A DNA stretch of 62,540 bases, filler included, from Bonamia ostreae (lineage: Eukaryota): the NCBI GenBank assembly GCA_040357525.1. It is 13 parts of 13 records of this genome, joined end to end, with 100 filler letters (N's around TTAATTAATTAA, not from the genome) between each part and the next. Parts side by side here need not be neighbours in the genome. Positions count along the whole stretch, not along the records: positions 24,260 to 28,984 come from JBDODL010000274.1; 12 more parts are not named here. One strand, given 5' to 3'. This document shows positions 6,894 through 61,673 of the stretch, in pieces. The notes under the pieces were generated by a model, which saw only the letters and a list, made by a program, of their open reading frames with translations, did no database searches and was not told where the DNA came from. The position numbers and the translations under genes are program-made. How positions within the stretch are numbered: the stretch's first letter is position 1; each line of letters starts with the position of its first letter.

Positions 6894-8380
6894 ATGTCCA
6901 AAAACTATGTCGATGCTGGTTCGGTAGTACAGAATGTTTTGGATGGCAAAGGTTTAAAGGCGGAGTTAACAAGGTTTAACAACCAAAACGTCACTTTGTT
7001 GGCCACAGAAACATTAAAATGTTTTTGTCCCAAATTTAAGATATATTTGTTCTAGACTCTTTGTTCAAAAATTCAGGCTTTTTGAAAAAAGTAAAGCTCG
7101 TGCGGGTTTTCCTTTTATGCAATTTTAGTCGAAAATTTTAGTTTCGGTCGTAATGGTATATGATCTGTGTTTGGGCCAAGGGAAGATAACAGGCGGCGGA
7201 AAAATAAAAAAATTAATTTATTCTCACCAAAACTCTTTAAAAACGAGTTTAAGCCGAATAAAGATAAGTTGCGGAGCCGTTAATAACGAAGATCTTATTC
7301 CCAAAGAAATAAAAAATTACAGTTTTGCTTCTAATCACAAAAGACCAAATGAAGATTTATGGCAAAGTGCACAAACAAAATCTACTTTATTCGAGATTAA
7401 AATCCGACGAACTAAAATTCGACGACTTTATTCCCGATTTGTTGATTTTGGATCGGAATGCAATAGCTCGCAACAAATCTTTAAAACTGCTCATCGAAGA
7501 AGGCGCCATCGTCGTACAAGTTGCTATCCAACAAAGAAACTTTTTTAAAGGACAAATCAAGTTGTTTTCCTGTTTTCGCGCTAAAAAAATTGGGATTCGG
7601 CGAAGGTGACATTATTGACGCTTGCGCTGCTCCGGGCAACAAGTCATTACAGCTGTCAAACAGTTTTAAAAAAAGCAGAATATTTTCCTTCGAAATTAAC
7701 TCCAATCGCTTCAAAACGCTGAAAAAACGTCTTTCAATCCAAAACACAAAAAACGTTTTTGCCAGAAACGTAGATTTTTTGAATGTTGAACATACTCAAT
7801 ATTCCACAGCAAAGTTTTACAAATTACGTAAAGAGCGATTTTGATTGATCCGTCGTGTTCCGGCTCTGGGACCATTTTCAGGAATATCGATCAATGGGTG
7901 CAACGTAAACTCAAAACGGAGAATGAGTTGCGCCAAGAAGTTTTTGGATAAAATTTTTCTGAAAAAGATGAACAAATACAGCAAACTACAATACAAACTT
8001 GTTTGCCACGCAATGAAGTTTCCAAATGTCGATTTGATAATCTATTCGACTTGTTCTGTCAAAGAGGAAGAAAATGAAAAAGTCGTCAAAAAAATTTTGC
8101 AAAATCACGAACATTTCGGTCTTGTCAAAATTTTGCCAAAATGGAAGAGAAGAGCTTTCAAAAACTATTTTAATTGTTCTATCAAACAAAAATCGTCCTT
8201 GTTAAAAATTTAGGGGAAATGATGGTCAGAGTTGATCACATTGAAGATGAAACAGGTGGATTTTTTGTAGCAGGTTTTGTAAGAAAAAAGAGTGGCAATA
8301 ATTTGGATTGCTCTAAAAATTGCATTTTCGCCGATGAGAAAAAAATCTTTTATAAAAAATTGAGGTTATTTGATAAATAA
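6894..8380 (+). CDS. NSUN5: 25S/28S rRNA m5C methyltransferase (NSUN5/Rcm1)
   Basis: Motifs LATETLKY, VYDLCLG, Q|DKSSCFP, IDACAAPGNKS, ILIDPSCSGSG, IYSTCSVKEEENE and TGGFFVAGF. About 7 small introns. Confidence 0.9.
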
Positions 8381-14438: not shown

Positions 14439-14628
14439 TTAGAATAAAAAAAAATCAAATTGCGAATTTTGAAAATTATNNNNNNNNNNNNNNNNNNNNN
14501 NNNNNNNNNNNNNNNNNNNNNNNTTAATTAATTAANNNNNNNNNNNNNNNNNNNNNNNNNNNNNNNNNNNNNNNNNNNNTTTTTTTTTATTTTGTTTTTT
14601 TTTTATATGTTAATATTTTAATTTTAGA

Positions 14629-16788
14629 TTTTTGAAAACGAAGAAGGCGGCAAACAAAACACTTTGTTTGAATGGCTAAATCGCTGTTCAACGCCATTCG
14701 GTCATCGATTATTGAAAGAATGGGTAGCCAGACCATTATGCAATATACAGAATATCAACAAACGTCTTGACGCCATTGAGAATCTTATGGAGTTGCCAGA
14801 ATTAGCTGAACAAATTTCAAAGAAATTAAATCTTTTAACGGACATTGAAAAAATGATTATCCGAATTAGAGCTTATTCGCTGCAAAAAAGAAAAATTGTT
14901 TTTTATGAAAACATCGATTTGAAATATCTACGAATATTCGTGCAAATTATAAATTCACTCAAAATTTGTTGTGAAATAATCTATTTGTTCAAAAGAATTA
15001 AAAACAAAATATTTTCAAAAAAGTTGATTGAACTAGTTTTTGACTTGTTTCCAAAAGAATGTGAAGGTCTTCGACTATATAACAATTTATATTCGACAAT
15101 ATAACAATTATTCGCAAATTAAAAATTTAGTAAAAAAATCGACAAAATTTAACAATTATCAAAATCAAAAAAAATAGAAAAATTGAGAATAAGCGAGAAA
15201 ATAGATATAGAAGAAAGTGAAGAAAAACAAAAAATAGTTCCAAAAGGCCAAATTAGCGAAAAATTTGAAAACATTAAAGAGGAAATGAATTTGATAAAAT
15301 CTAAACTTGAACAACATTTAAATAAATACAAAAAAATTTTTAACGATCCGTCAATCTGGTTTGCCATTTTTGCTCATTTTCGCTCAATTTTTTTGTTCAA
15401 ATTTTTAAAAAATACAAAAATTTTTAACGATTTTTTAATTTAAAGCTTTTTTGAAGGATTTATATCAAATTACCAAATCGAAATGAAATCAGAAACAGCT
15501 AATCAAAAACTATCAGAAGACTTAATAGAAGTTTCAAGAACATCAAAAAAACGACGATTTACAACAAACGAAATAAAAAGTTTGGTCGAAGAGTTAGAAA
15601 TCCTGCAAGAGAAAAAGAACGAATATTTGGAAAGTTATCTAAAAACCGTTTTGGCAGAATTCTGTGATCATTCTAAAATGTGGTCAGCCGCTATAAAAAG
15701 CATTGCCGAGTTGGATTGCATTCTAGCGCTTTATAACGTTTCAGCTTTTTCGACTGGATCGATGGTTCGCCCCTTCATTGTTAAAAACCAAGAGAAACCT
15801 TTTCTGGAGTTGAAACAATCTTGGCATCCTCAGATCAGCTTTTCGGAGTTTTTTATTATATGATATTTTCTTAATCGATATTTTTGTTTTTATTGCAAAA
15901 AATGGGACAACAATCCCATAAATTTTTTTTATCTAACTAGTAGTTATTTTTTGTGACTTAAATTTTTTGAACGATATTTAATAAAGACAGACAACGAGCA
16001 CAACGGGATTTGTGCCAAATGACATCTTTATCGGAGATGGTGCAGACACGAAAGCGATGATAATCGTTACAGGTCCAAACATGGGCGGGAAATCTACTTT
16101 GTTGAGACAAACTTGTATTGCTGTTATTTTAGCCCAATTGGGTTGCTTTGTACCCGCCAAATCAGCTAAACTGTCTTTGACGGTCTATTTAAAATTTTTG
16201 TCTTTTTTGGCCAATCGATTTAATGCGAAATTGAAAATTTTAACAAATTTTAAAGGATCGGATATTTACAAGAATTGGCGCAAACGACGCGATTTTGGCG
16301 AACAAAAGCACTTTTTTCGTGGAATTGGAAGAAACGTCAAATATTCTAAATAACGCAACTGAAAATTCTCTTGTTATCCTTGACGAGCTCGGAAGAGGCA
16401 CTTCCACTTTTGACGGTGCTGCGATCGCATTTGCAGTCTGCGAACATTTGTCTAAAATTGTAAATTTTCAAATTCTAAAAATGAAAAATTTTTAAATAAT
16501 TTACAAAATCAAATTAGACAAAATGTCGAACGTTGTTTTCGACGCATTACCATTTGTTATCAAAATACTATCGAAAGTCGAATTTTGTTTCGCAATGGAA
16601 TATGGCTTTTGAAGCGATTGGAAGCAAATTGATATTCCTTTACAAATTTCAAAAAGTTTAAATTTAACTAAAAGGGAATCTGTGAAAATTCGCATGGCAT
16701 TAATTGTGCGAGAATGGCTGGGATCGATCGCAAAATTATTGACAGAGCGGAAAAATTGAAAAATGATTATAGAAATTTGCTCGATTAA
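14629..16788 (+). CDS. MSH6: DNA mismatch repair protein MSH6 (5'-partial)
   Basis: [66 protein letters not shown] and FSTHYH. Confidence 0.9.
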
Positions 16789-24385: not shown

Positions 24386-24639
24386 TCAGTTTATCATATC
24401 AACAACTTCTATGGCGAGAATGCTGTTGCCCCTAACAGCGATTGTGCCTAGTTGGCGTCTATCGTTATTAGTGACAAAGTGAACGGCGTCACTTAACACA
24501 ACGTTCATAAATTGGTCGAAACCCCGCATATTCCCTCTGATTTGGATTTTTCCTCTGAGCTTCAAATCGAGGATTTTGTCCATGTAACTTTGATTAAATC
24601 ATTAAACTGCTTTAGTTCAGGTCCAGCTGATTTTCCCAT
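24386..24639 (-). CDS. SNRPG: Small nuclear ribonucleoprotein SmG; one 20-nt intron at 24588-24607
   Basis: MGKSAGPELKH|YMDKIL...RGFDQFMNVV...VRGNSI. Confidence 0.95.
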
Positions 24640-24874
24640 TGCAGTAAAAAGAGCGCAGTGTTTATAATTTTATATTTATCAATCAAAAAATAATTAATTT
24701 TTAGAATTGCTAAATATCTTTTTTAGTCATATCCAAACAAAACTACAAATTTCGCAACTTTATTTCAGTCATTTTAGTTTAAAGAATGTTTGCGCATGCA
24801 AAAATAATCTCTTTTCATTTCTGTCTTTAACACAATTCCATAAAACTTGAACCCCGACAAATTTAAAGCTCGGA

Positions 24875-27165
24875 ATGGTAATGTTTTGATAACTTTAAGA
24901 AAATTAAGTCATTAAACAGTGCAAGGCATGTTCCCAAAACAAAGGGCTTTATTGATTTTATTACGGCCGACGGCAAAAACATCATTAGTAACAGACTGAA
25001 CGTCTGTTTTAAAATCAAAAACAACACAATTTGGGCCAAAGTTTTAAAATTCATCCAAAAGAATATTCGTCTTTTGATGAAAACAGACCATGGCCCCATT
25101 TATAGGTGCTTTGTAATAGGCAGCACAAACAGCAAAATCCCCGTTATCCCAAACGGCGCCGAAGGAATCCTTACATCTAAAGAAGCCCTACCAAATCTGA
25201 AGACACACCATTTCGGGTTGTTTTTAGATGGATTTCTCAACCCCCATTCTAAAATGGGAAAAATCGATTTTAAGCAGCTTTCCAAACTATCGGAAAACGA
25301 ACCCTTTTCCGAAGAGCACAGCCAAATCGGCGATGTCGAAACAAACTCAGAAAACACCAAAATCGGCGGAGAGGACAAAAATACCGACAAAACAAGAAAC
25401 TTCGCTGAAGACAAAAACCGGACATTTGCGGCAATTCCTAAAACTACAAATCCCGATAAATTGATAAATAAAAACATTTTAAGTTCTAAAAATTTGGACG
25501 AAAACAGCGCTACTGAAAAAAGCAGCGAAGTTCAATTAGAAACGGGGATAAAAGCAATTGACTTGTTTGCACCAATAACGAATTCGAGTGACGTAGCGAC
25601 TGTTTTTTGTGACAATGGTTTGGCGAATTCTGTTTTGAAATGGATTGCTTTCAACGTGTCCAAAACTTGCAACAGTTTTACAAAAACATTTTAGAATTTG
25701 TGTCGATATATTCCGGCGATTACGGAAAAGCCCAAAAAGATTATAAGGACTTTGTGAAAATGGGAGTTTTTAACGACTTTGCTCAAAACAAAAGCGCCGG
25801 CGAAATTTCTAAATCGCAAAAAGTTGAATTTCCAAATTTGAAGAATTTGGAATTTGGGTTCCGTTCGGTTATGTTTAGCAACTCTGCGATGGATTTGCCG
25901 GGAATCAAAGTTGCCACAGCCAATCAATCTCTAAAAACAGCTTTTAAAGCGGCGACAAATTTAAAGAGCGGTGCGCTTTTTCTGTATCTGTTTAGGAATT
26001 CTGTTATCGACGTTTTTTAGCTTGATTTTTGATTTAAATTGGATAATTTTTAGGCCTACAATTTGATGAACATGTCCAAATATGGCAAATTTGATCCGCT
26101 CAGCAAACTTAACGAATACAATTGGGTCAAAACTGATTTGGAGACTAAAGATATTTACCAGAAACTTCGATATGATGTGTTTAATTTTTCTATTTACAAA
26201 TATTTTTATTCTACAAAAATTTGTCTTTATTAAAATATTTGTCGTTATTTAAGAAATTTTTAATCTTCAAAAATTTGTCTTTATTAAAATATTTGTCGTT
26301 ATTTGCAAAGATTTTTATTCTACAAAGATTATTTGTCTTTATTAAAATATTTGTCGTTATTTACAAAGATTTTTAATCTACAAAAATTTGTCTTTATTAA
26401 AATATTTGTCGTTATTTGCAAAGATTTTTATTCTTCAAAAATTTGTCTTTATTAACAAAAATTTATTTTTATCAAAAATTTTCATTGTACAAAAATTCGT
26501 CTTTATTAACAAAAATTTTTCATTGTACAAAAATAGCCATTTTTATTAACAAACAACAAATTTTGAAATCAAAAAATTTGCGGATAAAAACAAAAAGTCT
26601 AAATATCCGGAATTCTATGAAAACTTTACCAAAACAGAAAATTTGCTCACAATAAGTTCCTTAGAACTACCGAGCGATGTTTTGGATGGTTTGTTGATAT
26701 CGCCAAGCGCTATATTATCCAAACAAGACGCCGTGATAACTTTCAAGAAATGCAGAACCGCGCTAAATACGGAAATAACTGTTCCGATTGATCCGATTAG
26801 AACAACGAGCAAATTTTTGTTCGAACAAAATATTTTGAAAGTTAAAACTTTTCCGAAAACTAAAATGGCAAATGTTAATAAATCAAACAAAGAAACACAG
26901 AAAGACAAGTTTGATGGTGAGAAGACAATACATCGATCGAGAATCTTTTTATCTGAAGAAAAAGTTTCTGCTAAAGAATAGCAATTTCGAGATGAACCAT
27001 ATCGCTTCTAAACGACTAAAGATTCTGGACGCTTATCTGTTTACACAAAAAAGGCATTCGTTCGTACCGATTCGAAACACGATTGCGGACTGTTCCAATA
27101 TTTTAGAAGGAAAATATGACAGGGCGCAAATCAAAGATTTTATTAATATTGGAGAAATCGTTTAA
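24875..27165 (+). CDS. Highly divergent F1-ATPase beta-subunit homologue lacking catalytic motifs
   Basis: Colinear beta-like motifs LETGIKAIDLFAP, PIDPIRTTSK, LSEE and FVPIRNTIADCSNILEGKYD. Walker A, GER and Walker B are replaced. About 6 introns. Confidence 0.75.
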
Positions 27166-27464
27166 AGCAAAATTATTTTTAGTAAAAAAATTTTATTTTT
27201 GGCAAAAAATTGCTTTTTTTGCAAAAATGGCGTTTTAGTAGAAAAATATAATTTTTATTAAATTTTGGTAGAAAAATTGCTTTTTGGTAGAAAAATAATA
27301 TTATTAAATTTTGGTAAAAAATGGCGTTTTAGCAGAAAATTTTCGGCAAAAAATTGTTTATTAAATAAAAAAATTGCTTTTAGGTAAAAAAATTTTAGTT
27401 TTGTTAAAATTAAATCGCGCTCTATTTAAATATTCCAAGAAAACAGAAAATAGTATTTGTAAAT

Positions 27465-28299
27465 TTAGCTTTTTATATGGAAATATTTGACGTGCTGCTT
27501 CAACGCATTCTGGTCCATAAACATTCTCCCGCAGCCTTCGCTCGAACAAGCCAAAAGTTCGCCCGTGTGGATTTGCTATTTTTATTTTCAAAACTTGAAT
27601 GTGCTTCCTGAGATTGTAGTTCAACCCGAAGTCTCTGCGACACGACGGATAAGGACATTGGAAAGGCTTTTCTTTCGTGTGGACCATCATGTGCCGCTTC
27701 AACTTTGACGCTTCCGAAAACGCTTTCGGGCAGCCTTTCACTTGACAAGCGTGTTTCTTCTCGCCGTGAATGCGCTTGTGCTTCTTCAGCGAATTGAAGT
27801 CGCCGTAGACTTTTTTGCAGACGTCGCAGATGTGCTCCGTCTTCCCTTTGTTCTTGTCGCCCGCGGCCCTCCGACTCGGCTTCTTCCGCGGGACCCAGCC
27901 CGGCGGCAGAAGACGCGAGCCCAAAGGACCTTTGACCAGCTCGCGGAGGGGCACTTCCTTCGCCGCCTTCTTCGGGTCTTTGTTCCTTCTTCTGGCTTCG
28001 CATCGACGACGAGCCGATCGGAAGAAGGAAAACGCCGTTCCCTTCGAATCGGCTTCGTTCCTGCTGGAAATGGCTTCGTCCAAGTCGGAATCCGAATTCG
28101 AAAAATCGTTGTCCGCTCTGACCCAAGTCAGCGCGCTGAAGCTGGACTCGATCGTTTTGATCGGGATCCAGCGCCGGCGCCAGAGCGAATTCGCGTCTTT
28201 GCCTTTTTTGAAGGTCGTTCTTTTTCGAAGTTCGCGGCGAATCCTCTCTGTTTTGACTTCGTAAGTGTCTGCTCTCGAAGGCAATAGTTGTTCGCTCAT
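27465..28299 (-). CDS. YY1: YY1-like C2H2 zinc-finger transcription factor (four fingers; one 19-nt intron)
   Basis: KKHKRIHGEKKHAC...CPKAFSEASKLKRHMMVHTKEKPFQC...FGLNYNLRKHI follows the YY1 finger array. The N-terminal WxxxWIP...WV motif resembles plant YY1. Confidence 0.7.
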
Positions 28300-28461
28300 T
28301 CGTTGAACTTTTATGTGCGAAGCGTTAATGGACGGAAATGTTTATTTTATAAGTTTTGTCTGTTAATGGACAATATTTTTGTAAAATATTTTTTCGAACA
28401 AGTTTTTAAAATTTTTAATTTTCGAAGCGGCGCGTTGGGCTAAATTACAAAAATTAGGAAA

Positions 28462-28963
28462 ATGCATTTGCTGAACATGACTGCAAAGCGTTTGAACAAG
28501 CTATTGCCCGGACCGCCGATTTTCGAAAATCATTTCAATCTTTTCGCCTTTTCTCGAAAATTTTTGTTTGACAGTTTTACTTTAAAAAAGAACGCTCCCG
28601 AAGCGCAAACCCAAAAAACGGAGGAACGCGAGGAAAATAAAGGAACTGGAGAAAGCTCCTGCTCGAAAAGCGATAGTTTTGAAAGTGACCACGAAAAAAC
28701 CGAAGAAGCCGAATTCTGCCCAAAGGAAAGTGGCGATTTGCAAATTGACATTCAACAACAAGACGATGACCGCCTACATTCCGGGCGAGGGACATAACTT
28801 GCAACAACACTCGGTCATTCTTGTACAGCCGAAAAGACGAAAGGATATCGGGACCAAGATCGAGGCCATTCGAGGTGTTTATGATTTGGCCGGGGTCGAA
28901 GGCAGAGTTCGAAGTCGGTCGCGATATGGAACGAAAAAACCTCCAAAAGAAAAAATTGAATAA
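28462..28963 (+). CDS. MRPS12: Nucleus-encoded mitochondrial ribosomal protein uS12m with N-terminal extension; inferred 25-nt intron at 28566-28590
   Basis: Bacterial-type S12 motifs KPKKPNSAQRKVA, AYIPGEGHNLQQHS and RSRSRYGTKKP, preceded by a presequence-like N-terminus. Confidence 0.9.
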
Positions 28964-29102
28964 ATTTTTCAAAAATTTTAACAANNNNNNNNNNNNNNNN
29001 NNNNNNNNNNNNNNNNNNNNNNNNNNNNTTAATTAATTAANNNNNNNNNNNNNNNNNNNNNNNNNNNNNNNNNNNNNNNNNNNNAAATTGTGTAGAAATG
29101 AT

Positions 29103-33350: not shown

Positions 33351-33725
33351 TTATGAATTTACTTCGCATAAACAAACAGAATGGTCACTTCCGAGTGAAA
33401 CTTTCTGAACTTGGCAATCGCTAAACGGTCCAACAAGTTCCAAAGGATTTGTTCGAAAAGCTGCGACCGATTCAATCGAATCGCCGCGGCCGAGTTGACC
33501 GTCTCTGCCGTTTCCGCTCAAAAACAGTCTTCGCTTTCCGTTTAAATCTTCCGCCAAAAACGCGGAATGGCCGGCGCCACAATCCGCTTGGATCAACTTG
33601 AGTTCTCCTAAAACCAGTTTTGTTGGGATTGCGCGAACATTGTTGTCGCCCAATCCGAGTTGCCCGGTTTTGTTCATTCCCCACAGAAACGCGCAATCGG
33701 CTTTTCCTGGGAGTGCTATCGAATG
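33351..33725 (-). CDS. RCC1-repeat protein, last exon (5'-partial)
   Basis: GMNKTGQLGLGD, CGAGHSAFL, GNGRDGQLGRG and LGSDHSVCL. Confidence 0.85.
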   Translation of the reverse strand, partial: HSIALPGKADCAFLWGMNKTGQLGLGDNNVRAIPTKLVLGELKLIQADCGAGHSAFLAEDLNGKRRLFLSGNGRDGQLGRGDSIESVAAFRTNPLELVGPFSDCQVQKVSLGSDHSVCLCEVNS

Positions 33726-33974
33726 GAGATATTTTGTCGAAATTTTCTCAATCTTATTTTACAAAATTTATAAAAATGGAAAAGTTAAATTTTGTCGCGC
33801 AACGGNNNNNNNNNNNNNNNNNNNNNNNNNNNNNNNNNNNNNNNNNNNNTTAATTAATTAANNNNNNNNNNNNNNNNNNNNNNNNNNNNNNNNNNNNNNN
33901 NNNNNTTTTTGTCGAAAACATTTTTCTACAAATTTTGTTTCTAATCAATAAAGAAAAAGAATAGAACTCGTTTA

Positions 33975-47100: not shown

Positions 47101-47710
47101 GAAAATAGTTCTGCCAAAAAGGGAGTTCTTCCGGAGATAGTTAAGAAGCTGCTTGAAAGAAGAGGAAACGTCAAAAAATTGATGAACGTTTTATAAATAT
47201 ATCTTCAAAAAAGAAAACAGTGTCGGAGAGAGAAAGGGGATCGTTGGACATTCGCCAAAAAGCACTGAAACTAGTTGCGAACTCGATCTACGGCTGTTTG
47301 GGATTCGAAAGATCTCGCTTTTATTGCAAAGAAATGGCGTCTCTGATAACGTTGCTCGGGCGAAAAAGCTTGTTAGCGGCCAAAAACGCCGCTGAAGATG
47401 TGCAGTTAGAACCACCTCCAAGAGTAATTTACGGCGATACGGATTCGATAATGGTCGCGACGGGTCTGCTAAATTTGGCAAGAGCCAAAAGAGCAGCGAT
47501 GGAAATAATTAAAGCCGTGAACAAACGCCATATGTTCATGCGAATCGAACTAGATGGCATTTTTCGCAACATCATCTTGCTGCAAAAGAAAAAATACGCG
47601 GCGAAAATGGTGGTTGGAGAAAAAAAGGGCAAAATTGAAACCAAACTGGAGCTAAAAGGAATTGATTTGGTGCGAAGAGAATGGTGCAATTTTTCAAAGA
47701 AACTTGGGAG
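44194..47710 (+). CDS. POLA1: DNA polymerase alpha catalytic subunit (3'-partial)
   Basis: MYWIDAFE...LFGK, KGPCW, DPDVVVAHN, YSGGLVLEPQKGLYD, DYASLYPSII, KLVANSIYGCLG, YGDTDS, KKKYAA and KGIDLVRREW. Confidence 0.96.
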
Positions 47711-47949
47711 GTTTGTGGGATTGTTATTCTTTTTAATAATTGTCAAAATTTTCGTTTCGGAAAAAATATTGTTTTCCGAAACTTGTAATAAAAATATTTT
47801 TGTTTAGTAAAATATTGGAATATATTTAAAAAGTCAAATAATTTAATTTCGAAAAATCAATTAGGTTTTATGCCGAATAAATCCACTAAGGAAAACCTAA
47901 TTTAAATTTTACTAATAAAAAATTTAAATTCATTTTTCAAAGGCCTATA

Positions 47950-49431: not shown

Positions 49432-51620
49432 TTATTTAAAAGAATCTCCGATCTCCATCGGCTCAATTTCGATTCCTTTTCGAAAAACAACGCGTTTCTT
49501 TATTTTTTCAACAAACTCTTTCTCGGTGTTCCAATTTCGTCCGATCGACGTTTCCATTAATTTATTATATTTATTTTCAGATTTGAACTCGGATGGTTTC
49601 TCAGGAATGGTCACACGCGACAACTAAAATTCGGAAAATAAACCGTTTCTGCAATCGCTTCTTCGTTGAAAACAACCGTTTTTTCTAAAGGTTTCTTTTC
49701 AGTTTTTTTAATCTTTTTCTTTTTTCTGATTCCTTTTCCTGCCCACGATCCCTTTTTATTGAAGATAAAATTTTTGTAAATTTGCAAATGTGAAACCCAT
49801 CCGACATTCTCATCTTCACTATTTTCATCTTCGACATTTTCCTCTTGTTTCTTCATAAAATCTTCTCTTTCGAAACCTGTTGTTTCCACTTCTGCAATTC
49901 TGTCATTGTTATCTTCAGATTCTCCTAAAGGTATAAAGTCTTCAGAATCGCTATCAAATTCTGCAAATTCTTTTATCAGTTTTTCACTTTTCTCATTTTT
50001 CGCAGTTTTATTGTTTTTAAAGTTCTTTTTTGAGATTATTTTGTTTGTCAAATTTGAATTTTCGTTGGTCAAATTTGAATTTTCGTTGGTCAAATTTGAT
50101 TTTTCGTTGGTCAAATTTGATTTTTCGTTGGTCAAATTTGATTTTTCGTTGGTCANNNNNNNNNNNNNNNNNNNNNNNNNNNNNNNNNNNNNNNNNNNNN
50201 NNNNNNNNNNNNNNNNNNNNNNNNNNNNNNNNNNNNNNNNNNNNNNNNNNNNNNNAATTTGATTTTTTGTTGGTCAAATTTGACATTTTAAAATCTATTT
50301 CGGTTTGGTCTGCCGTTGTATAAAATCCATTAATACTTTTTCCAGATTTCGTTTCATTATCAATATTTTGAACCGAACTAGATTTTTTAAAAATATTCAA
50401 AGTTTTAAATTTTTCGCCATCGTTATCCGATAATCCACTTTTTTCTTCATTTTTTTCTAAAGCTTTTTTCATAAATTTAAGAGCAAAAATTCCTTTTTTC
50501 GTTCCTTCTTTTGAATCGTCTGAATCCGATTTGACATCAAAAAGATTTTCGTCGTTATTATCCGTTTCTCGTTCTTTTTCGACTCTTTTCCTCAAGTTCT
50601 GTTTTAACAATCAAAATTTACAAAAATTTCAAATTCGCGACATTACAAAAAATCAATTTTTGAACTTTGTCAATTTGTCTCATATCTTCTAAACTGTTTT
50701 TAATGTCACTATCTTTCGCCAAAAAAGGCCTCTTCGCTACTCTTTTAGCCCATTTACTCGTATTCTTATGCCGCAGATCCATTCTTTCTTTAGCTCGACT
50801 TTTAATATTTTGGTTAAAAACGCCAAAATCAAGTTTTCTTTTGATTCTTCCGCAAGTAATCCGTCTTTTTTCAAATCGTTTATTTTTTTGTTTTTCTCTC
50901 TTTTCAGCATTTTTCGATATTTTCTACTTTTTATTTTCTTCACTCTTTTGTTCCTGTTTTTATCAAAGAAATCTTTCGATTTTTGAATGGCTTTGTCCAT
51001 CGTTTCTTTTTTGTCCAGATTTTTATGTTTTGCAAAATTGTTCGATTTGTTTTTCGTCAATCCGGACAACAGTTTTACAAATTTTTTGTCAAAACTCGTT
51101 GTGTTCTTTACGTTTGAAGTTATTTCTTTCAAATTTGGCTAAAAGTTTATTTTGAAACTTTTTCTATTAATGGCGTCTGTTTGCTGAAAAATGAAATCTG
51201 GCTCGATTTTCTTTTCCGTTTGACAAGAGGATCCCATTTCGAAACCGCTCCTTTCAATTCTTCGTAGCAGATTTTTCGTTCCATTCTTTTTTCCGTCGAA
51301 GGATTAAAATTGGTTGCGCTTTTGTTCAAGTTTGGCCCAAAATTTTTGGAAATCGACTTAATTTTGTTTTTAAGCGAATCGTCATTTACGTCCGTTGCCA
51401 GATCCTCTAAAGAGATCTTTTTGGTGTGGAAAATATTGAATTGATTTCTGCTTTTCTTTTCAGTTGTCAATTTTTGTATTTCCGTTTGTTCGATATTTCT
51501 GTTTTCCAAAACGTTTTTTATCAAGTTTTTATGTTTGTTTTCGGTATATCCGCTATCTCCGAACTCAAAGTCCGAAACTATGTCAGAATCGATTTCAGAA
51601 TCGAATAGATTATCAGACAT
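49432..51620 (-). CDS. UTP14: U3 snoRNP/SSU processome protein Utp14
   Basis: ERKICYE...KWDPLVK, KKIKSRKYRK, RAKERMDLRHKNTSKW, LKFMKKA, GW|GSWAGKG and SIGRNWNT. Contains a 21-bp tandem repeat around a gap. Confidence 0.9.
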
Positions 51621-51886
51621 AAAAAATTGGTGGCTAAAATGTTATAACGCAATTTCAATCTATAAAAATCGATGGCTAAAAGCTTGTTTATTCTAATTTT
51701 TACAAATTATTTAAATTGGAAGAACATAACAATCAAAAATTTTGCAAAAAATGCACAAAAAGATTAAATAATCAATTTAATTTTAGCCAAAATTACATAA
51801 AAAACGATTAATCGCAAAAGATTAAATAGCTTTAAATATTAAAATTTATATAAATATTATAAATAGCTTTAAAAATTAGCACTAAA

Positions 51887-53310: not shown

Positions 53311-53515
53311 TTTATATTCCCAAAATAATTATATCCGAAATTATTAAAATGATAAAGCTTTTAAGCTTAAAAAATGTCTTTTTCTATAAAATTAATCTAT
53401 GTATCTACATATTTAAAAAGCAGTAAAAATAAAATCAAACAATTTTCGAAATTTTGTTGCTAAAAATTAATTTAGTAAAGCTAAATTTTAACCTGCCGTA
53501 TATAAAAGTCCGAAA

Positions 53516-54764
53516 ATGGAATTGCCATGGCTTGAAAAATATCGACCGAAAAATTTGAATCAAATTGTTGGAAACGATTTAGTTATCGATCGCCTTAAGT
53601 CCATTGCGGAAACCGGTAACATGACAAACCTCCTTCTCAGCGGTCCGCCCGGCATTGGCAAAACGACCACAATAATATGCCTCGCCAAAAAGCTGCTCGG
53701 TAGCGACTATAAAAAAGCAGTTTTGGAATTGAATGCGTCTGACGAACGGGGGATCGACGTCGTCCGAAACAAAGTGAAGAATTTTGCGAAAACTAAAGTC
53801 GGATTGCCAAAAGGGCGCCACAAATTAATCATTTTAGACGAAGCAGACAATATCACTTCGAGTGCCCAGAACGCTTTAAGACGAACAATGGAAGTCTGAA
53901 ATTTTCACAAAATATTTTAATTTAAAAATTTTTAAATTTTACAAATTTATTTCGCTTTTAAAGCTCTATTCGGATACGACAAGATTTATATTGTCTTGCA
54001 ATTTTTCGACAAAGATAATCGAAGCGATTCAAAGTTGAAATTTCTAAAAATAGGTCGCTGCGCTGTTTTGAGGTTCAGTAAATTGAACGAAAAGGACGTT
54101 CTTAAAAGAATGCTCAAAATTTTGGAATTTGAAAAGGTTCGATATTTTTAAAATTTGTCTTCGAAAATGAATCAAACTTTTCAAAGTCTAATATTTTTCG
54201 AAAATGAATAATTTTTCGACCGATTTATCAAATCTTTACCATTCGCTAAACTTTGATAAAGATAAATAGCTATGACGAAAATGGATTAGAAGCCATTTTG
54301 TTTATAGCAGACGGCGATCTTAGAAACGCGATCAATAGCATGCAAGCTACACATACAACTTTTGAAAGCATCACAGAACAAAACGTCTACAAAGTTGCAA
54401 AATCCAAAATTTAGGTTTGTGACGTTCCGCACCCGTTCATTTTGGACCAAATAATCAATTTGTGTTCCAAAAATGACGTCGCGTCCGCTTTGGATAGGAT
54501 GAACGGTAATTCTTGAAAATTTGAAGCTCTGATATCGAAGGGATACTTGGCTAGTGACATTGTGACATCGTTGTTTCGATCTGCCAAAAATTCAAATTCG
54601 CTGAAAATTAGCCAGCAATTGAAGTTTATACAAGTTTTTGATTAAATGTCGAGATAATTGGTTCGTCGCATTTGCGGATTTTGGAAGGGAACTGTTCGCG
54701 CTTGCAACTAAATGGCTTGGTCGCATCGCTTTGTCGATACGACGAAAACGATAAATTTGACTGA
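53516..54764 (+). CDS. RFC2: Replication factor C small subunit (human RFC2 / yeast Rfc4); 6 introns
   Basis: [52 protein letters not shown] and VCDVPHP. Confidence 0.95.
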
Positions 54765-60527: not shown

Positions 60528-61673
60528 TTACAAACCCTTGTTGAAATAAAGAGTTTCGACTGGCGAGCCATCACTGAGCTTTAATCCCTTAAAGCAATCC
60601 TCAAGTTCACTTATCTTCGCAGACCCGATTTGCGGGAAGAGGCCAATAGATACCGGAAGAGAGATAAAGGTCGTTGCTGTTATCAAAGCGATGTTGAAGG
60701 GCATCGCCATTCTAGGCATGTTTTTGAACACTAGTTTTCGTTCCATTATCTTAAGTTATTAAGACATTAAAAATTATATTCGCAACAAAATCCGAAAGAG
60801 CTAATTAATGGATGTCAATGGCAACCGATTTGACTAGCGCGGGGAAGAGGATTGTAGGGATCGGGAATATTGCTCTCGACAAAGACACTTGTCGAAGAGC
60901 CTTGTGGGCCGCTTTTTTAGACGACCCGACGACCTCCCCGTCTTTGTTCTTTAGTTCGATTCCTTTGACGGTTTCGTTGTACCGCATGAGGAGAACGTTT
61001 GACACACTCGCCGCGGCGACCGACAGAAAGGGGACTGTTGCCCTCGCTGCTATTCCGGCAATGGGCGAGATTTTCGAGGCGGGCTTGACTAGTTTGCTTA
61101 TCGATACGCTCATTCCGCAACTCACTGTAAGCGCCATCAGATAAGCGGACGCGATTTTCTGCGGCGACATCGGATTTGTTTTGTTGCCGTTGCTGTGGTT
61201 TATTGCCACGTTGTAAGACTGATTGTACCACTGCCAAAACAACTGCGCTTGAATCGTCTTCGCGGAAATCATTCCGAGGATGATCGGGATATTCATCGGC
61301 ACGAAAGCTGCAAACCGGCACGGAAGAGGTATTTTCTCTTTTGTCTGAGGGTGCAAAATCGAATCTTAAATTTTGCATATTTTTATGATCGCGTTGAAGC
61401 GGCGGAAATAGACGAAATTTTTGTCAAAACCAGTTATCTTCTTTGCCTCCCACAATTCGCGATTAACCGCGTCGCTTAATTTCTTTATTTTGCCTGTTTT
61501 ATATTCCTCCAACAAACTGACCGCTCGCTTCAACTTCTTATCAGACGTCATCAACAGCATCGGATTGAAAATCTCGGATATAAAAGTCAAACCTCGAAGA
61601 AATGCCGGACGCGGCCGGCTAAAGTAGACTGATCATATTTATTTTTTTCTAGATTAAATTCTTCGTCTGACAT
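60528..61673 (-). CDS. SFXN: Sideroflexin (mitochondrial inner-membrane carrier)
   Basis: KYDQSTLAGRVRHF, HPQTKEKIPLPCRFAAFVPMN, FWQWYNQSYN, GLFPQ and YFNKGL*. Confidence 0.96.

Follow-up and report, generated by a model that had tools for sequence, protein, structure and literature searches.

The haplosporidian oyster parasite Bonamia ostreae very probably keeps a non-catalytic homologue of the F1-ATPase beta subunit, and we lean towards reading it as a non-catalytic paralogue beside a putative canonical beta encoded elsewhere in the genome. Catalysis by ATP synthase takes place in the beta subunit, which is among the slowest-evolving proteins. The Bonamia protein (P0004), deposited at NCBI as 'ATP synthase [Bonamia ostreae]', is a true but extremely divergent homologue of it, and the database label 'ATP synthase' is no evidence of ATP synthesis.

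Gene structure and transcription

The gene lies in a 62.5-kb window (the whole stretch of DNA analysed), and its limits are exactly those given by the first-pass annotation, with an ATG at 24875-24877 and a TAA stop at 27163-27165. It has seven introns rather than the approximately six counted there, all of them GT..AG and measuring 22, 21, 20, 21, 42, 421 and 52 nt in order. The joined exons (1692 nt) were translated by script and give P0004 letter for letter. The elements of the gene model are as follows.

24875..27165, plus strand: whole beta-like gene of 8 exons separated by 7 GT..AG introns; its product is the 563-amino-acid P0004
24875..24944, plus strand: start codon, 22-nt intron (24878-24899) and 16-residue basic extension MKIKSLNSARHVPKTK; the orthologue P0002 aligns from residue 1
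25041-25061, plus strand: in-frame 21-nt intron in the crown domain; the translation of the spliced exons equals P0004
25675..25694, plus strand: 20-nt phase-1 intron, whose removal is needed, as it avoids a TAG at 25692-25694 and shifts the frame
25823..25843, plus strand: in-frame 21-nt intron, absent from P0004 and isoform P0001; a transcript contig aligns from exactly 25844 (weak support)
26012..26053, plus strand: 42-nt intron, GT..AG, skipped by the transcript contig of run X1
26177..26597, plus strand: 421-nt intron, skipped by the transcript contig
26841..26892, plus strand: 52-nt intron, skipped by the transcript contig and retained in isoform P0001

The gene is live, being transcribed and spliced in B. 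ostreae. A spliced contig lacks the 42-, 421- and 52-nt introns and differs from the window by one letter in 796 aligned letters, five unaligned letters preceding position 25844; its word depth is high (333.9) and is no measure of expression level. Run X2 contributed one 165-nt contig on the window (27010-27174) and run X3 no contig matching the gene region. Splicing is thus borne out by transcript for these three introns, while introns 1-3 are without read support because no contig of runs X1, X2 and X3 spans 24800-25843. For the first of them, the alignment of P0002 from residue 1 supports the model of an ATG followed by a 22-nt intron. Isoform P0001 is the translation obtained when the intron at 26841-26892 is retained; it stops at 26979-26981 and has its last 90 residues replaced. 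The 421-nt intron contains a 55-nt tandem repeat of 5.8 copies (26191-26509; Tandem Repeats Finder).

Homology to the F1-ATPase beta subunit

All 18 matches of P0001 in the PDB at E<=10 (phmmer) were F1 beta, with a best E of 0.0019, and so were all 46 matches of the two-sequence profile A1 (best E 5.5e-6). Comparison of A1 with 16 bacterial betas by hhalign gave a probability of 99.0% and an E of 5.1e-18 over 312 columns, so that the homology cannot be ascribed to chance; within the aligned span (query 202-562, beta 134-463) the nucleotide-binding and C-terminal domains are colinear with those of beta. NCBIfam beta models matched P0004 with E-values of 7.8e-11, 3.6e-8 and 3.6e-6, the scores (41.5, 32.6 and 26 bits) being far under the respective cut-offs of 570, 462.85 and 752; on TIGR01039 (atpD) the score was 32.6 bits, short of the 462.85 set for that model. 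A tblastn search with bacterial betas matched 27031-27159.

Pfam assigned no family to P0004 or P0001 even at E<=10, and a Pfam search of single exons gave no relevant match; P0002 reached 18.5 bits on PF00006, below the cut-off of 29.5. Single exons searched against the PDB with phmmer yielded a marginal match of exon 3 to beta (E 0.5-1.9), and matches of exon 7 to adiponectin and myelin P2 that we attribute to chance. The similarity to F1 beta claimed in the first-pass annotation is borne out by the PDB searches, hhalign, the NCBIfam models and the Atlas fold.

Domains and predicted structure

The single-sequence ESM Atlas model (pTM 0.69) displays the three-domain fold of an N-terminal barrel, a Rossmann-like core and a C-terminal helical bundle. 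It aligned to F-type beta clusters with TM scores of 0.66/0.79 over 429-430 residues, and the structural alignment covers residues 1-563 of P0004, in keeping with a full-length homologue as originally proposed. AF2 gave an unusable model (pLDDT 29) from the two family members only; with bacterial betas in the alignment it reached a pLDDT of 60.9, rising to 82-93 in the C-terminal helical domain, and the agreement of its Foldseek matches with the beta fold is circular because bacterial betas were in the input alignment. The domains are placed as follows.

24945..25256, plus strand: N-terminal beta-barrel ('crown'), residues 17 to about 113 (AF2 strands 18-86, pLDDT 52-78; Atlas alignment)
25257..25523, plus strand: extra segment rich in K/N/E/D/S/T, residues 114-202, placed after the crown and ahead of the nucleotide-binding domain (pLDDT <50)
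26893..27165, plus strand: last exon, C-terminal helical domain (YLFTQ...FVPIRNTIADCSNILEGKYD), a good match to beta, with hhalign extending to residue 562

The crown domain lies outside the hhalign coverage. Only 16 residues precede the barrel, the first acidic residue being D20, and this basic N-terminus, which P0002 has as well, may represent a short mitochondrial presequence, of the very short kind that had been foreseen. Insertions had been noted as well, and long extra segments are indeed present at residues 114-202, 280-300 and about 347-399, the first of them missing from P0002 and from all 16 bacterial betas.

The catalytic site

Alignment A2 (MAFFT) comprised 18 sequences, namely P0004, P0002 and 16 bacterial betas. 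P0004 keeps 33 of the 93 beta-invariant columns and P0002 keeps 28, with 16 kept by both. Five positions of the window concern the nucleotide-binding and catalytic motifs.

25536..25574, plus strand: LETGIKAIDLFAP, best-kept beta motif, start of the nucleotide-binding domain (alignment A2)
25605..25631, plus strand: Walker A (P-loop) position, FCDNGLANS instead of F-GGAGVGKT; Lys column N237, Thr column S238
25712..25741, plus strand: G-E-R-x-R-E position, SGDYGKAQKD; Glu column K264, Arg column A265
25973..26011, plus strand: Walker B strand region ALFLYLFRNSVID (hhalign, pairwise alignment, MAFFT A2)
26971..26997, plus strand: DELSEED-loop position, LKNSNFEMN (A2 columns 548-552 and following)

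Residues T209, G210, K212, D215 and P219 in LETGIKAIDLFAP are invariant in all 18 aligned sequences, and every PDB match is seeded in this stretch. Downstream of it, alignment shows other residues in P0004 at the P-loop, at the catalytic Glu and Arg and at the acidic DELSEED loop. The P-loop reads GGAGVGKT in 35 of 35 bacterial betas and CDNGLANS in P0004, which keeps one of the eight beta-invariant P-loop columns; P0002 has AAYDNNGDN there. At the site of the catalytic Glu and Arg, P0004 reads G263-K264-A265-Q-K267-D268, that is, G-E-R has become G-K-A, and P0002 is gapped. In none of its frames does the plus strand of 24500-27500 encode a P-loop, which rules out its restoration by alternative splicing. 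The first-pass annotation had already read the replacement of Walker A by FCDNGLANS and the altered GERTRE position, and its view of a dead catalytic site is upheld.

Two of its readings need amendment. The Walker B strand was correctly located, at ALFLYLFRNSVID, but the loss of its Asp depends on the alignment, the corresponding column being Y343 (pairwise), L344 (hhalign) or D351 after a 15-column gap (MAFFT A2); the Asp is probably replaced, by Y343 or L344, given this ambiguity. Y343, R346, N347 and S348 of this region are common to P0002. The statement that DELSEED is reduced to LSEE was mistaken: LSEE (26949-26960) lies in frame 0 and is translated only when the 52-nt intron stays in the transcript, as in P0001. 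The DELSEED columns of P0004 hold KNSNFEMN, the acidic loop being absent, and P0002 is gapped there.

Orthologue and extent of the family

Searching P0001 against 1.84 billion representative sequences recovered only P0002 and a repeat protein, P0003, whose match (E 8.7e-4) was judged to be due to chance. P0002 is a 452-amino-acid orthologue from a second organism (E 1.4e-15, 31% identity) that starts with MRVRTLNKF and aligns from M1 through the C-terminal domain. It has the same dead site as P0004, which implies that the loss is old and that the protein has been kept since. D232, N233, N237 and D261 are common to both proteins in the pairwise alignment, and hence the former site would not be drifting freely; their P-loop residues are out of register in alignment A2.

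No canonical beta was recovered at E<=0.001 with P0001 from the 1.84 billion representatives, a library in which betas are merged at 50% identity. Word-index searches with A1 and P0002, in which the 8,000 candidates sharing most words were scored, added no family member; this type of search misses relatives at 30% identity, since the A1 query did not recover P0002. Metagenome scans gave no relatives among 97 (P0002) and 444 (P0004) pattern matches. The family thus numbers two members (P0004 and P0002) in the libraries searched, and no description of a nuclear Bonamia beta gene, or of a beta without a P-loop, was found in the literature searched.

Genomic context and the mitochondrion

The mitoribosomal S12 and the sideroflexin cited in the first-pass annotation as signs of a translating mitochondrion were both recovered by profile in the same window.

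28586-28960, plus strand: bacterial-type ribosomal protein S12 (TIGR00981, 118.8 bits, cut-off 112.95)
60808-61365, minus strand: sideroflexin (PF03820, 199 bits)

Other proteins of the window also score well (DNA polymerase B 165, MutS_III 93, S12 75 and LSM 68 bits), and with sideroflexin at 199 bits the divergence of the beta homologue is not just a general feature of the organism. A second beta-like gene is absent from the 62.5-kb window. A partial mitochondrial genome of B. ostreae with genes for ATPase subunits, cytochrome oxidase and cytochrome b is reported in PMC11069148 and PMC11946409. Together with the bacterial-type S12, these genes would lead one to expect a working complex V and hence a catalytic beta. 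PMC11946409 also describes substitutions of well-conserved residues in COX1 and COB of B. ostreae, a possible sign of degeneration throughout its oxidative phosphorylation, and related ascetosporeans have reduced mitochondria according to PMC9998036.

Interpretation and alternative explanations

We propose that this live nuclear gene would yield a three-domain pseudo-ATPase incapable of canonical ATP binding or turnover. Its short basic N-terminus suggests that the protein may still be imported into the mitochondrion, where it could serve as a subunit with a structural or regulatory, non-catalytic role, docking on F1-type partners through the retained crown domain, core fold and C-terminal domain. 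It would do so as a dead paralogue, with a canonical, catalytic beta encoded by another gene of the genome. A kept dead beta has two possible meanings: haplosporidians may have found a new non-catalytic use of the F1 fold, in parallel with the way in which the V-type B subunit arose, or oxidative phosphorylation in these parasites may be coming to an unusual end. In both cases the finding matters for how an uncultured oyster pathogen is supplied with energy.

The main alternative, in which P0004 is the sole beta of B. ostreae and its ATP synthase is non-catalytic, kept for example to shape the inner membrane or as a scaffold with ATP coming from glycolysis or the host, is rather unlikely in our judgement. 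From N-terminal extension through crown and core to C-terminal domain, the protein follows the order of beta, as an orthologue would and a stray copy would not, and the reduced mitochondria of related ascetosporeans (PMC9998036) and the substituted COX1 and COB residues (PMC11946409) fit this explanation. No second beta appeared in the window or the libraries searched, but these searches could not reveal a canonical Bonamia beta, because the library merges sequences at 50% identity without names and the word index scores 8,000 candidates. The mitochondrial ATPase, cox and cob genes reported in PMC11069148 and the kept mitochondrial translation are hard to reconcile with a complex V that would have died before the P0002 lineage branched off. 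Were the dead protein the only beta of haplosporidians, this would be the first known case of a eukaryote with a structurally retained, catalytically extinct ATP synthase, a mitochondrion with genome, ribosome and respiratory-chain genes carrying an F1 head unable to make ATP and kept for a non-catalytic job.

The other explanations fare worse than the paralogue that we favour. Acquisition by gene transfer of a bacterial F1-like ATPase beta, e.g. of the mycoplasma MSC_0618 type and unrelated to the mitochondrial enzyme, is very unlikely: P0004 (E 7.8e-11) and P0002 (E 2.3e-9) both have MSC_0618_beta as their top NCBIfam model, and the best non-self match of P0002 is P0006, a beta of this type (821 bits to that model), but the MSC_0618 matches are limited to the ETGIKAID and P-loop stretch, the 570-bit cut-off of NF045934 is not reached (41.5 and 36.6 bits), and all these sequences are AT-rich, with a composition flagged as odd by the tree tool. 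The gene also has seven spliceosomal introns and a eukaryote-style N-terminal extension. A quick tree of low reliability separated P0004 and P0002 from L035 and P0006 (branch SH-aLRT 95); as it contained no mitochondrial betas and both query branches were saturated (length 10), it shows only that they are not next to the mycoplasma type. We consider it likewise very unlikely that D232, N233 and N237, which are newly conserved, form a non-canonical site at which nucleotide is bound or hydrolysed. These residues and D261 are common to P0004 and P0002 when aligned pairwise, but the catalytic Lys, Thr, Glu and Arg columns are all replaced and the P-loop residues fall out of register in A2; P-loop NTPases are not known to function when this Lys is missing. 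A decaying pseudogene still transcribed by chance, finally, is scarcely credible. Extreme divergence, long extra segments and an isoform that retains an intron and stops early would agree with decay, but 563 codons remain open at 37% G+C over seven precisely placed introns, the P0002 frame, with the same start and the same C-terminal domain, is likewise uninterrupted, and a spliced contig exists (word depth 333.9, which does not measure expression). The spliced contig and the orthologue with the same dead site bear out the earlier view that this is not a simple pseudogene.

Comparison with known systems

P0004 resembles the F1-ATPase beta subunit (atpD / ATP5F1B; PF02874 + PF00006 + PF22919) in domain order and fold, and keeps ETGIKxxDxxxP, the DPxxSTS loop and the C-terminal YVPxxxTxxxxxxILxGKxD block. 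It departs from it in the replacement of Walker A, of the catalytic Glu/Arg, of DELSEED and probably of the Walker B Asp, in its extra segments and in scores below curated cut-offs. Subunit B of V-type and A-type ATPases is a non-catalytic partner without a P-loop, and P0004 is like it in keeping the alpha/beta ATPase fold after loss of the catalytic site. Language-model features named 'V-type ATP synthase subunit B' as the top clusters for P0004 and P0002 (scores 0.92-0.93). None of the 46 PDB matches of profile A1 was a V-type B subunit, however, and no V-type B model matched P0004 at E<=0.01, the only V-type B sequence match being that of P0002 to one model (E 0.0028, 16.4 bits, cut-off 431). 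Membership of V/A-type subunit B was rejected, as both the sequence matches (46/46 in the PDB) and the Atlas structure matches are F-type beta.

F1 alpha is a non-catalytic member of the hexamer that shares the xTGIKxxD motif with beta, retains the P-loop and binds nucleotide. P0004 has this motif in common with alpha, would resemble it further as a non-catalytic part of the hexamer, and differs from it in lacking the P-loop; none of the 46 PDB matches of its profile was an alpha chain. If a canonical beta exists, the pattern of a parasite keeping a dead subunit copy would be that of the trypanosomatid AdoMetDC 'prozyme', described in PMC5201418 and PMC6221367. The prozyme belongs to another enzyme family and partners an active enzyme, a partner that for P0004 is putative. 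Known departures of mitochondrial F1 consist of cleavage of alpha and of an added subunit; that of Bonamia is a beta without its catalytic site, in Rhizaria.

Gene structure and transcription

The beta-like gene lies in AT-rich, eukaryotic DNA from the nucleus of Bonamia ostreae, a haplosporidian that parasitises oysters. With its largest open frame as query we retrieved P0001 (519 aa; NCBI/UniRef 'ATP synthase, variant 2 [Bonamia ostreae]'), whose cluster mate P0004 (563 aa; 'ATP synthase [Bonamia ostreae]') is identical in every letter to the joined translation of eight exons:

24875-24877, + strand, exon 1
24900-25040, + strand, exon 2
25062-25674, + strand, exon 3
25695-25822, + strand, exon 4
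25844-26011, + strand, exon 5
26054-26176, + strand, exon 6
26598-26840, + strand, exon 7
26893-27165, + strand, exon 8

P0001 is reproduced exactly when the last intron stays in. The first-pass annotation was right that the frame stays open across the introns, but these number seven rather than about six, all GT..AG (22, 21, 20, 21, 42, 421 and 52 nt). The 20-nt intron is required, because its removal avoids a TAG and shifts the frame, and the N-terminus of P0002 (a 452-aa orthologue from another organism), where MRVRTLN aligns with MKIKSLN, speaks for the 22-nt first intron.

An 801-nt contig from the public run X1 matches window positions 25844-27154 with one differing letter and omits exactly 26012-26053, 26177-26597 and 26841-26892. 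It begins at 25844, the acceptor of a 21-nt intron, preceded by 5 unaligned letters. With these 42-, 421- and 52-nt introns skipped, transcription and splicing of the gene are established, as the RNA check proposed at first pass was meant to do; the first three introns lie outside the stretch with read support.

Four of the seven introns (24878-24899, 25041-25061, 25675-25694 and 25823-25843) span only 20-22 nt, close to the lower size limit known for spliceosomal introns; two of these are in frame and stop-free, their retention adding only 7 residues. The B. ostreae genome paper, in its accessible text, speaks only of 'canonical introns' (PMC11069148). The 421-nt intron contains a 55-nt tandem repeat (26191-26509; 5.8 copies, 86% matches), and AT-rich 18-19-nt repeats lie just 3' of the gene (27173-27236 and 27348-27394).

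Homology to F1 beta

Neither single exons nor the whole protein (P0004 or P0001) matched any Pfam family, so the profile check originally proposed failed at this level. The homology itself was borne out by other searches. P0001 gave 18 phmmer matches in the PDB at E<=10, all colinear F1 beta (best E 0.0019), and among 1.84 billion representatives scanned the single true relative was P0002 (Logan contig, E 1.4e-15); the only other match, a repeat protein, was judged to be chance. A two-sequence profile of this family matched F1 beta in 46 of 46 PDB hits (best E 5.5e-6). Against 16 of the 35 bacterial atpD loci of our reference set, each of which encodes GGAGVGKT, hhalign aligned 312 columns of this profile (residues 202-562; probability 99.0%, E 5.1e-18). 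Matches to the NCBIfam beta models have E-values from 7.8e-11 to 3.6e-6, with scores 10-30 times under the cut-offs of these models.

The ESM Atlas contains the P0004 sequence, and its model (pTM 0.69), independent of the alignments supplied here, aligns over 429-430 residues to F-type beta clusters (TM 0.66/0.79). AF2 run on two sequences reached pLDDT 29; a beta-like model (pLDDT 60.9) was obtained only with bacterial betas in the alignment, and is compatible but circular.

Loss of the catalytic site

In an alignment of P0004, P0002 and the 16 bacterial betas, ETGIKAIDLFAP anchors the P-loop position 10 residues downstream without gaps. There the beta F-GGAGVGKT is replaced by F-CDNGLANS in P0004 and A-AYDNNGDN in P0002. 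P0004 has G-K-A at the G-E-R columns and KNSNFEMN at the DELSEED columns; its Walker B Asp column falls on Y343 or L344 by two alignments and on D351 by a third. Of 93 columns invariant in the bacterial betas, P0004 keeps 33 and P0002 28, with 16 kept in both, and the protein fails four of the tested defining beta features. No P-loop-coding sequence occurs in any frame on the plus strand of 24500-27500; alternative splicing could therefore not restore the P-loop.

The dead catalytic site announced by the first-pass annotation thus holds, as does its overall observation, with two corrections, and its interpretation is supported. Besides the intron number, DELSEED is not reduced to LSEE, which is the frame-0 reading of 26949-26960, translated only in the intron-retaining P0001, 7 codons before its stop.

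Other genes of the window

A Pfam scan (E<=0.001) of 42 other open frames matched 19. Recognisable genes or exons of the window are:

517-942, GNAT acetyltransferase gene/exon
7129-7545, NSUN5 N-terminal domain
14628-15860, MutS domains III/IV
24389-24598, - strand, LSM protein
27364-28341, - strand, C2H2 zinc-finger protein
28586-28960, + strand, bacterial-type ribosomal protein S12 gene, nuclear (TIGR00981, 118.8 bits, above cut-off; PF00164, 74.6 bits)
33354-33758, - strand, RCC1 repeats
47157-47804, DNA polymerase B
51150-51641, - strand, Utp14
53492-53896, AAA/RFC-like P-loop ATPase
60808-61365, - strand, sideroflexin gene fragment (PF03820, E 9e-59)

For the conserved proteins the scores are normal (199 bits for sideroflexin, 165 for DNA polymerase B, 93 for MutS_III, 75 for S12 and 68 for LSM); the divergence is therefore not general to Bonamia proteins, and the notion that these simply look so was ruled out. 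S12, presumably mitoribosomal, lies 1.4 kb downstream of the beta-like gene and overlaps an opposite-strand 151-aa open frame (28577-29032) lacking a Pfam match. Sideroflexin, a mitochondrial inner-membrane protein, is normally conserved in the B. ostreae genome.

Likely role

P0004 and P0002 share their start and a basic N-terminal stretch of 15-16 residues, none of them acidic; crown, core strands and C-terminal domain are likewise retained in both. The catalytic site was lost ahead of the split between the two known lineages, and retention of these parts around a lost site is the pattern of a pseudoenzyme that has been preserved for the sake of its shape. We favour, with some reserve, a non-catalytic paralogue that would dock on F1-type partners. 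That the protein is instead the sole beta, with complex V catalytically extinct, we consider rather improbable: a partial B. ostreae mitochondrial genome is reported, in the accessible text, to carry ATPase, cox and cob genes (PMC11069148; PMC11946409), and these, with the nearby bacterial-type S12, make it the likelier background that complex V works and that a canonical beta is therefore encoded elsewhere in the genome. Our protein searches could not have singled out such a beta, on which orthogroup or mitochondrial annotations in supplementary files may bear; its absence, if true, would sharply raise the significance of the gene. The best NCBIfam model suggests that the gene was acquired by transfer from a mycoplasma F1-like ATPase, but a quick tree, though saturated and built without mitochondrial betas, gives this origin no support.

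The protein's mode may be likened to that of the V/A-type B subunit, which has the same fold and is also non-catalytic, and V-type B clusters are nearest to P0004 and P0002 by language-model features; unlike V-type B, the beta-like protein derives from F-type beta by sequence and structure. F1 is described, in the accessible part of one account, as conserved throughout eukaryotes, euglenozoan peculiarities excepted (PMC13545225), and the accessible published literature, supplementary files aside, describes neither this protein nor any eukaryotic beta without a P-loop.

Other alpha/beta-like proteins

P0005, a bacterial protein (Logan contig, 516 aa), fuses sigma-70 regions 2 and 4 (PF04542, PF04545, PF08281) to a shortened beta-like domain (PF00006) with LEMGIKAIDVF and, at the GGAGVGKT position, GDMQTGKM; it too is an unusual derivative of the beta fold. 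P0006 (Logan contig, 461 aa), retrieved solely because it has ETGIKAIDFF words in common with P0002, belongs to the mycoplasma MSC_0618 F1-like ATPase family (821.5 bits); this beta is AT-rich and catalytically intact. Two Chlorophyta ESM Atlas clusters (representatives 638 and 494 aa), among the nearest feature neighbours of both P0004 and P0002, carry PF00006 in 97% of members each, and PF00306 in 39% of the 638-aa cluster; they may be further divergent eukaryotic alpha/beta-like proteins.
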